Below are positions 29,474 to 30,467 of a stretch of 64,000 bases of DNA, one piece after another. Below the pieces are notes generated by a model. It was not told the DNA's origin, made no database searches, and saw only the letters and a program-made list of their open reading frames with translations. Position 1 is the first letter of the stretch. Each line of letters begins with the position of its first letter. Made by a program: the position numbers and the translations under genes. The stretch lies in assembly GCF_000026545.1 (NCBI RefSeq), contig NC_011601.1, one strand, 5' to 3'. The DNA is from Escherichia coli O127:H6 str. E2348/69. Lineage in GTDB: Bacteria; Pseudomonadota; Gammaproteobacteria; Enterobacterales; Enterobacteriaceae.

Positions 29474-30467
29474 TTACTCGCGGAACAGCGCTTCGATATT
29501 CAGCCCCTGCGTTTGCAGGATTTCGCGCAAACGGCGCAGGCCTTCAACCTGAATCTGGCGAACACGTTCACGGGTGAGGCCAATTTCACGACCTACATCT
29601 TCCAGTGTTGCCGCTTCGTACCCCAGCAAACCGAATCGACGTGCCAGTACTTCACGCTGTTTGGCGTTCAGCTCGAACAGCCATTTGACGATGCTCTGCT
29701 TCATATCGTCATCTTGCGTGGTATCTTCCGGACCGTTCTCTTTTTCATCGGCCAGGATGTCCAGCAACGCTTTTTCGGAATCACCACCCAGCGGGGTGTC
29801 TACCGAGGTAATGCGCTCGTTAAGACGAAGCATACGGCTGACGTCATCAACTGGCTTATCCAGTTGCTCTGCGATCTCTTCCGCACTTGGTTCGTGGTCC
29901 AGTTTATGGGACAACTCGCGTGCGGTTCGCAGGTAAACGTTCAGCTCCTTTACGATGTGAATAGGCAAACGAATAGTACGGGTTTGGTTCATAATCGCCC
30001 GTTCGATCGTCTGGCGAATCCACCAGGTTGCGTATGTTGAGAAGCGGAAACCACGTTCCGGGTCAAACTTCTCTACCCGCGCGGATCAGCCCCAGGTTGC
30101 CCTCTTCGATCAGGTCCAGCAACGCCAGACCACGATTGCCATAACGGCGGGCAATTTTTACCACCAGACGCAAGTTACTCTCGATCATCCGGCGGCGGGA
30201 GGCAACATCTCCACGCAGTGCGCGACGCGCAAAATAAACTTCTTCTTCGGCCGTTAACAGTGGTGAATAACCAATCTCACCAAGGTAAAGCTGAGTCGCG
30301 TCCAGCACACGCTGTGTAGCTCCCTGCGATAACAGTTCCTCTTCGGCCAAATCGTTATCACTGGGTTCCTCTTCTACTAAGGCCTTTTCGTCAAAAACCT
30401 CAACTCCGTTCTCATCAAATTCCGCATCTTCATTTAAATCATGAACTTTCAGCGTATTCTGACTCAT
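29474..30467 (-). pseudogene. rpoS: rpoS (sigma S) disrupted by a +1 frameshift; the gene is split into a 134-aa N-terminal ORF and an out-of-frame C-terminal ORF
   Basis: The two ORFs together encode complete RpoS ([17 protein letters not shown]... and ...[21 protein letters not shown]...). The span is 994 nt, one more than the 993 nt needed for 330 aa plus stop. The coding strand reads CGC GCG GGT AGA where wild type reads CGC GCG GTA GAG ([16 protein letters not shown]); the extra base sits in the CCC run at plus-strand 30076-30078. Confidence 0.85.

Follow-up and report, generated by a model that had tools for sequence, protein, structure and literature searches.

The window analysed here, a stretch of 64,000 nucleotides from Escherichia coli O127:H6 str. 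E2348/69 (NC_011601.1), retains the gene order surE-pcm-nlpD-rpoS, with rpoS at its conserved place downstream of nlpD. The identity of rpoS follows from the Pfam sigma-70 regions 1.2, 2, 3, and 4, which are found in this order on the repaired or intact sequence; in the window they are split over two reading frames. The locus contains the following features:

30530..31624, minus strand: nlpD, the upstream gene (RefSeq coordinates), same sequence as in the rpoS+ stock
29474..30467, minus strand: rpoS pseudogene, 994 nt as compared with 993 nt when intact, with 100% identity to the "frameshifted" rpoS of NZ_LT827011.1 and NZ_LT903847.1
30063..30467, minus strand: truncated N-terminal reading frame, in which 130 native residues are followed by Gly-Arg-Glu-Val and a premature TGA (30065-30063)
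30077..30084, no strand assigned: 8-bp palindrome CCGCGCGG, the terminal GG/CC dinucleotide of which is extended by the inserted base; local sequence context only
30076..30078, minus strand: GGG run holding one extra G (wild type GG), ORF positions 390-392, CCC on the plus strand
29474..29992, minus strand: downstream out-of-frame remainder, a 172-residue ORF equal to RpoS Met159-Glu330 (regions 3 and 4)
29427..29460, minus strand: intrinsic terminator-like hairpin of 15 pairs and a T run, 14 nt past the rpoS stop codon

The rpoS span starts with the ATG at 30467 and ends with the TAA at 29476-29474. In an alignment to the intact 993-nt rpoS of NZ_CP059840.2, the only difference is a single gap at ORF position 390; there are no substitutions. 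The coding (minus) strand of the window reads ...GGG CTG ATC CGC GCG GGT AGA GAA GTT TGA CCC GGA..., and the codons at the site change from GCG GTA GAG AAG TTT GAC in the wild type to GCG GGT AGA GAA GTT TGA. The reading frame shifts past Ala130, codon 135 is a stop, and the product is 134 residues long and ends in GREV. The alignment confirms what the first-pass annotation had read from the sequence alone: two adjacent minus-strand ORFs in different frames within a span of 994 nt, an additional G at 30076-30078 where the wild type has GG, and an N-terminal fragment of 134 residues.

The N-terminal ORF comprises 146 residues if it is counted from an in-frame ATG further upstream (30503), as in the ORF listing. 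The ATG at 30467 is the start used in RefSeq and in the solved structures of RpoS. Residues 1-131 of the window product match the E. coli RpoS chains in the PDB with E-values of about 1e-77. Residues 131-158 of RpoS remain encoded in the second frame, where they are not preceded by a start codon: from the upstream stop (ORF positions 380-382) to Met159, this frame has no ATG, GTG, or TTG. The 172-residue downstream ORF is probably not translated to any useful extent, and even if it were made, the remainder alone would be unable to work as a sigma factor because region 2 is missing from it altogether.

The main promoter of rpoS is known to lie inside nlpD. A consensus scan, too crude a match to be informative here, found no sigma-70 promoter site across nlpD-rpoS. 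The nlpD gene, the leader, and the terminator-like hairpin are identical to those of the rpoS+ stock NZ_CP059840.2. The rest of the locus is the same in the two; the defect is confined to the coding frame of rpoS. The start of nlpD itself is ambiguous (30530-31669, minus strand): the ATG at 31669 gives the longest ORF, of 379 residues, and is the Logan call, whereas RefSeq places the start at the TTG at 31624, which gives 365 residues.

NZ_CP059840.2 is the genome of another stock of E2348/69, in which rpoS is intact (993 nt, WP_000081550.1). Across the whole 64,000-base window it has no mismatches and one gap, which is the extra base in rpoS. The chance of one random difference landing in rpoS is 993/64000, or 1.6%. 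The rpoS span of the window is 100% identical in only two of the 5,414 matching records, NZ_LT827011.1 and NZ_LT903847.1; these two also match a 24-kb piece of the window with 100% identity. The former is E. coli O127:H6 "EPEC E2348/69 variety 2", with the source given as "Sanger Centre via Imperial College", and the latter is EPEC1, an "artificial construct derived from EPEC E2348/69 variety 2". In the RefSeq annotation of the two records, rpoS is a pseudogene and carries the note "frameshifted".

The rarity of the insertion was determined using a 53-nt probe centred on the extra G, for which wild-type alleles are unable to give a 28-nt megablast seed. The probe matches two of 5,426 complete E. 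coli genomes, both from the "variety 2" lineage; 5,400 genomes have a place that covers 80% or more of the rpoS query. The window thus carries an rpoS reading frame that is broken before the essential regions, in a form absent from the sister stock and from the species at large, as is characteristic of a stock-specific loss allele. Judged from these records, the lesion is real and private to one stock lineage of E2348/69.

A short run of G is a site at which the additional base could be a homopolymer error, possibly inherited by reference-guided assemblies from the 2009 reference, in which case the strain would really be rpoS+. The presence of GG in another E2348/69 assembly (NZ_CP059840.2) is compatible with such an artefact. 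Furthermore, LT827011 and LT903847 were partly assembled against NC_011601, and LT827011 alone depends for this reason in part on the original Sanger sequence. However, the Illumina MiSeq data behind LT827011 and LT903847, with a coverage of more than 100x, were assembled de novo as well as in a reference-guided manner (Cepeda-Molero et al. 2017, PMC5685641). The exact 134-residue product is also on record in the Logan assembly of a separate run, ERR294530, which was built de novo and free of any reference. In this assembly, 6,405 nt from a 40-kb contig are identical to positions 27063-33467 of the window, with the extra G included. ERR294530 may derive from the same stock and not from an independent culture.

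The comparison with CP059840.2 also argues against an artefact, since 64 kb with no other difference indicate that neither assembly is error-rich in this region, and the sole difference sits in the gene that is best known to vary between stocks. Runs of three bases are not error-prone for capillary or Illumina chemistry. Homopolymer error, the doubt that had been raised together with the initial reading of the site, is countered at the level of the assemblies: both the separate run ERR294530 and LT827011 and LT903847 have GGG and not GG. Because the assembly of a separate run contains the same additional base, a sequencing error is unlikely. Mata et al. (PMC5491219) also regard the extra G as a real difference between stocks. 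We consider it extremely improbable that the insertion is an artefact of sequencing or assembly.

The lesion is already known and is not new, as it was published in 2017 and is flagged in RefSeq. According to Mata, Ferreira and Spira (PLoS One 2017, PMC5491219), there are two stocks of E2348/69, NalR and StrR, the genomes of which have both been sequenced. They reported a guanine insertion at rpoS ORF position 390 in E2348/69 StrR, which results in a frameshift and premature stop codons (PMC5491219). The window shares with it the strain, the guanine, position 390, and the consequence, and its allele is that of StrR. The StrR allele was inferred by Mata et al. from the published genome, whereas the stock that they characterised was NalR, which has a functional rpoS (PMC5491219). 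The E2348/69 genomes are cited by them from Iguchi et al. 2009 (PMC2612414) and Nisa et al. 2013 (PMC3807458). Together with the three further records or assemblies in which the insertion was called independently and with the sister stock, this publication supports the frameshift interpretation put forward in the first-pass annotation.

The insertion can be polarised, because GG is found in all other genomes and in the sister stock, and GG is accordingly read from these sequences as the ancestral state. A single +1 insertion of G, from GG to GGG, is carried by the streptomycin-resistant stock lineage of E2348/69, which passed from the Sanger Centre to Imperial College, and by its engineered derivatives. 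The GG run is the end of the 8-bp palindrome CCGCGCGG, and the extra G probably arose by replication slippage within this run. The frame is shifted after Ala130, and translation stops four codons on. The mutant was presumably enriched in storage or in stationary-phase culture, which is the usual route for rpoS mutants, and a classical RpoS-negative phenotype would result. Mata et al. suggest that the mutation arose in storage, for example in LB stabs (PMC5491219). It is highly probable that a genuine additional G in one stock lineage of E2348/69, with an expected loss of sigma-S function, is the explanation of the locus.

Intact RpoS has the Pfam domains r1_2 (residues 56-88), r2 (94-163), r3 (174-248), and r4 (262-315). 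The break after residue 130 splits the Sigma70_r2 domain (94-163) in the middle, and r3 and r4 are lost entirely, so that the 134-residue fragment keeps region 1.2 and about the first half of region 2. In the sigma-70 family, regions 2.1-2.2 bind the core polymerase and regions 2.3-2.4 melt and read the -10 element, whereas regions 3 and 4 provide further contacts with the core and recognise the extended -10 and -35 elements. By the established sigma-70 numbering, region 2.3 falls into the lost part of the window RpoS. The earlier description of the fragment as lacking regions 2.4-4 was correct in that regions 2.4, 3, and 4 are lost; it slightly understated the damage, since the cut at residue 130 within Pfam r2 (94-163) also removes region 2.3. 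Without regions 2.3, 2.4, 3, and 4, the 134-residue product is predicted to be incapable of directing promoter-specific transcription, and a stock with this allele is expected to be a sigma-S null. In the literature searched, no catalase, glycogen, or western-blot data were found for the allele-carrying stock; only the rpoS+ NalR or Kaper stocks were tested.

With a very low probability, the allele might leave some residual activity, for which two routes can be proposed. In the first, a low-level +1 slip of the ribosome where the two frames overlap (23 nt, ORF positions 383-405; GUU-UGA-C is one such place) would restore a full-length RpoS of 330 residues with the replacement VEKF131-134GREV. 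The old frame ends in UGA followed by C, which is a weak context for termination, and the new frame opens at ORF position 383. However, the frameshift is not conserved (2/5,426 genomes), which indicates that there is no programmed signal, the re-pairing of GUU to UUU is mismatched at the first position, and no clear Shine-Dalgarno-like stimulator is found upstream. In the second route, the 134-residue fragment would bind core RNA polymerase. It keeps r1_2 and the first half of r2, that is, regions 1.2-2.2, and the RssB turnover element (Lys173) is absent from it, so the fragment might accumulate and shift the competition among sigma factors. Truncated sigma fragments are, however, usually unstable. 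The remaining support for residual function comes by analogy with frameshifting of the prfB type and with sigma-core contacts, and the literature searched holds no experimental hint of it. If residual function were real, the widely used Sanger/Imperial stock and its effector-deletion derivatives would not be equivalent to a true rpoS deletion. Very little probability is assigned to such residual function.

Programmed frameshifting was also considered as an explanation of the site in its own right. A programmed +1 frameshift of the prfB type was rejected, as the site is not conserved and only two of 5,426 genomes have the insertion. When inspected by eye, the sequence GGU AGA GAA GUU UGA C offers re-pairing at two of three positions and holds no AGGGGG-like element, and a prfB-type signal was rejected for it as well. 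A phase-variable contingency locus based on a homopolymer was likewise dismissed, because the run is 2 nt long in the wild type and 3 nt long here and varies in one lineage only. Contingency homopolymers typically have at least 7 nt and differ in length among isolates.

The allele resembles several known rpoS variants. Like it, the GASP-type mutants selected in stab cultures, in long stationary phase, or under nutrient limitation (PMC3240573; Zambrano et al. 1993, cited by Mata et al.) are cases of rpoS loss or attenuation within the laboratory history of one strain, by which its stocks become heterogeneous; in contrast to the GASP-type mutants, selection during storage is presumed for the window allele. 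In LB stabs, rpoS mutants appear within 7 days, and they were present in no fewer than 40% of the stocks sent by mail (Spira et al. 2011, PMC3240573). The uropathogenic E. coli CFT073, like the strain of the window, is an archetypal pathogen with a reference stock in which rpoS is frameshifted and sigma-S truncated. The rpoS lesion of its sequenced stock is a 5-bp duplication, which the original clinical isolate does not have (Hryckowian and Welch 2013, PMC3573659). Unlike the single base of the window, the duplication is located at another site of the gene, and the CFT073 allele is non-functional by experiment (PMC3573659). The stabs of Spira et al. 2011 and the sequenced CFT073 stock are precedents for such selection in stocks, and from these parallels we infer a laboratory origin of the window allele.

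The codon-33 amber allele of K-12 stocks (Subbarayan and Sarkar 2004, cited by Mata et al.) is similar to the window allele in being a stock-to-stock polymorphism with a premature stop. Re-initiation on the amber allele leads to a partly active, N-terminally shortened protein. Codon 33 of the window rpoS encodes Glu33 and is not amber. In contrast to the K-12 allele, the break in the window is inside region 2, and neither piece has a complete promoter-recognition module.

Downstream fragments of rpoS are widespread in sequence records. The 172-residue ORF (RpoS Met159-Glu330) is present on at least 1,000 contigs, and the records of several genomes label it "RNA polymerase sigma factor RpoS"; the same C-terminal ORF has been deposited as "RpoS" for CFT073 (AAN81755.1). 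Disruptions in the 5' half of rpoS appear to be common in public assemblies. The 90%-identity cluster of the 134-residue product holds other truncated RpoS sequences from unrelated runs, three of which come from the following alleles:

Positions 1861-1931 of L007, L008, and L009, aligned with window 30038-30107: other +1 rpoS alleles, with products ending in IPRGREV or MPRGREV

In these runs (SRR6342321, SRR29529248, and SRR33541083), a T or G is inserted in the GATC located 7 nt upstream of the window insertion, and the shifted frame ends at the same TGA after 134 residues. On the evidence of such sequences, +1 frameshifts in rpoS are a recurrent occurrence in public data. A mirror-image hotspot at CCGCGCGG, with a matching C insertion in the other arm, was considered but is not supported, as the DNA has the T or G inside the adjacent GATC. 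Nor is a hotspot at the site of the window insertion claimed, because the closeness of the other +1 alleles is an ascertainment effect of 90%-identity clustering with the 134-residue product.

RpoS is the controller of general stress resistance. E2348/69 is the prototype EPEC strain, and the stock with the lesion underlies "variety 2", from which the effector-depleted EPEC1 was built (PMC5685641). In an rpoS+ stock of E2348/69, DsrA is reported to repress LEE1 transcription in an RpoS-dependent manner, and so is overexpression of rpoS (PMC12205375). Because of the roles of RpoS in stress resistance and LEE1 repression, results on stress, survival, and LEE regulation may not carry over from one laboratory to another if their E2348/69 stocks differ. 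The value of the analysis lies in a practical caveat for users of the Sanger/Imperial stock and of derivatives of the EPEC1 type, and in a point of annotation; it is not a discovery.

The remainder of the window contains several regions of variable gene content. The interval between rpoS and mutS, a known mosaic region, has the following features, all of them upstream of ygbN:

28947-29354, plus strand: MarR-family regulator, in the variable rpoS-mutS interval
26533-28800, minus strand: hydroxyarylic acid decarboxylase genes B, C, and D, in the variable rpoS-mutS interval

The allele from run SRR6342321 (L007) has a different neighbourhood, in which a GntP-family transporter directly follows rpoS, unlike the arrangement at 26533-29354 of the window.

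The interval between iap and cysH (39496-42909) is composed as follows:

39496-40533, plus strand: iap
40658-40810, minus strand: hok/gef toxin gene
40872-41906, plus strand: truncated integrase-core (IS) remnant
42175-42909, minus strand: cysH

Only the hok/gef gene and the IS remnant are found between iap and cysH here, whereas many other E. coli carry cas3/casA type I-E CRISPR-Cas genes in this place.

At the beginning of the window, a group of mobile-element and toxin-antitoxin-like genes is located:

113-571, plus strand: IS200C transposase gene
1243-1662, minus strand: HTH antitoxin-like gene
1659-1970, minus strand: HigB-family toxin gene

The IS200C/HigB group (113-1970) is positioned just beyond the hyc operon, and in CP059840.2 an ISEc13 transposase follows next, outside the window. 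At the opposite end, positions 59222-64000 hold a sucrose-utilisation cluster with a carbohydrate porin (59222-60739), the sucrose PTS component IIBC, sucrose-6-phosphate hydrolase, and a LacI-family regulator, the annotation of which was taken from the identical sequence of CP059840.2.
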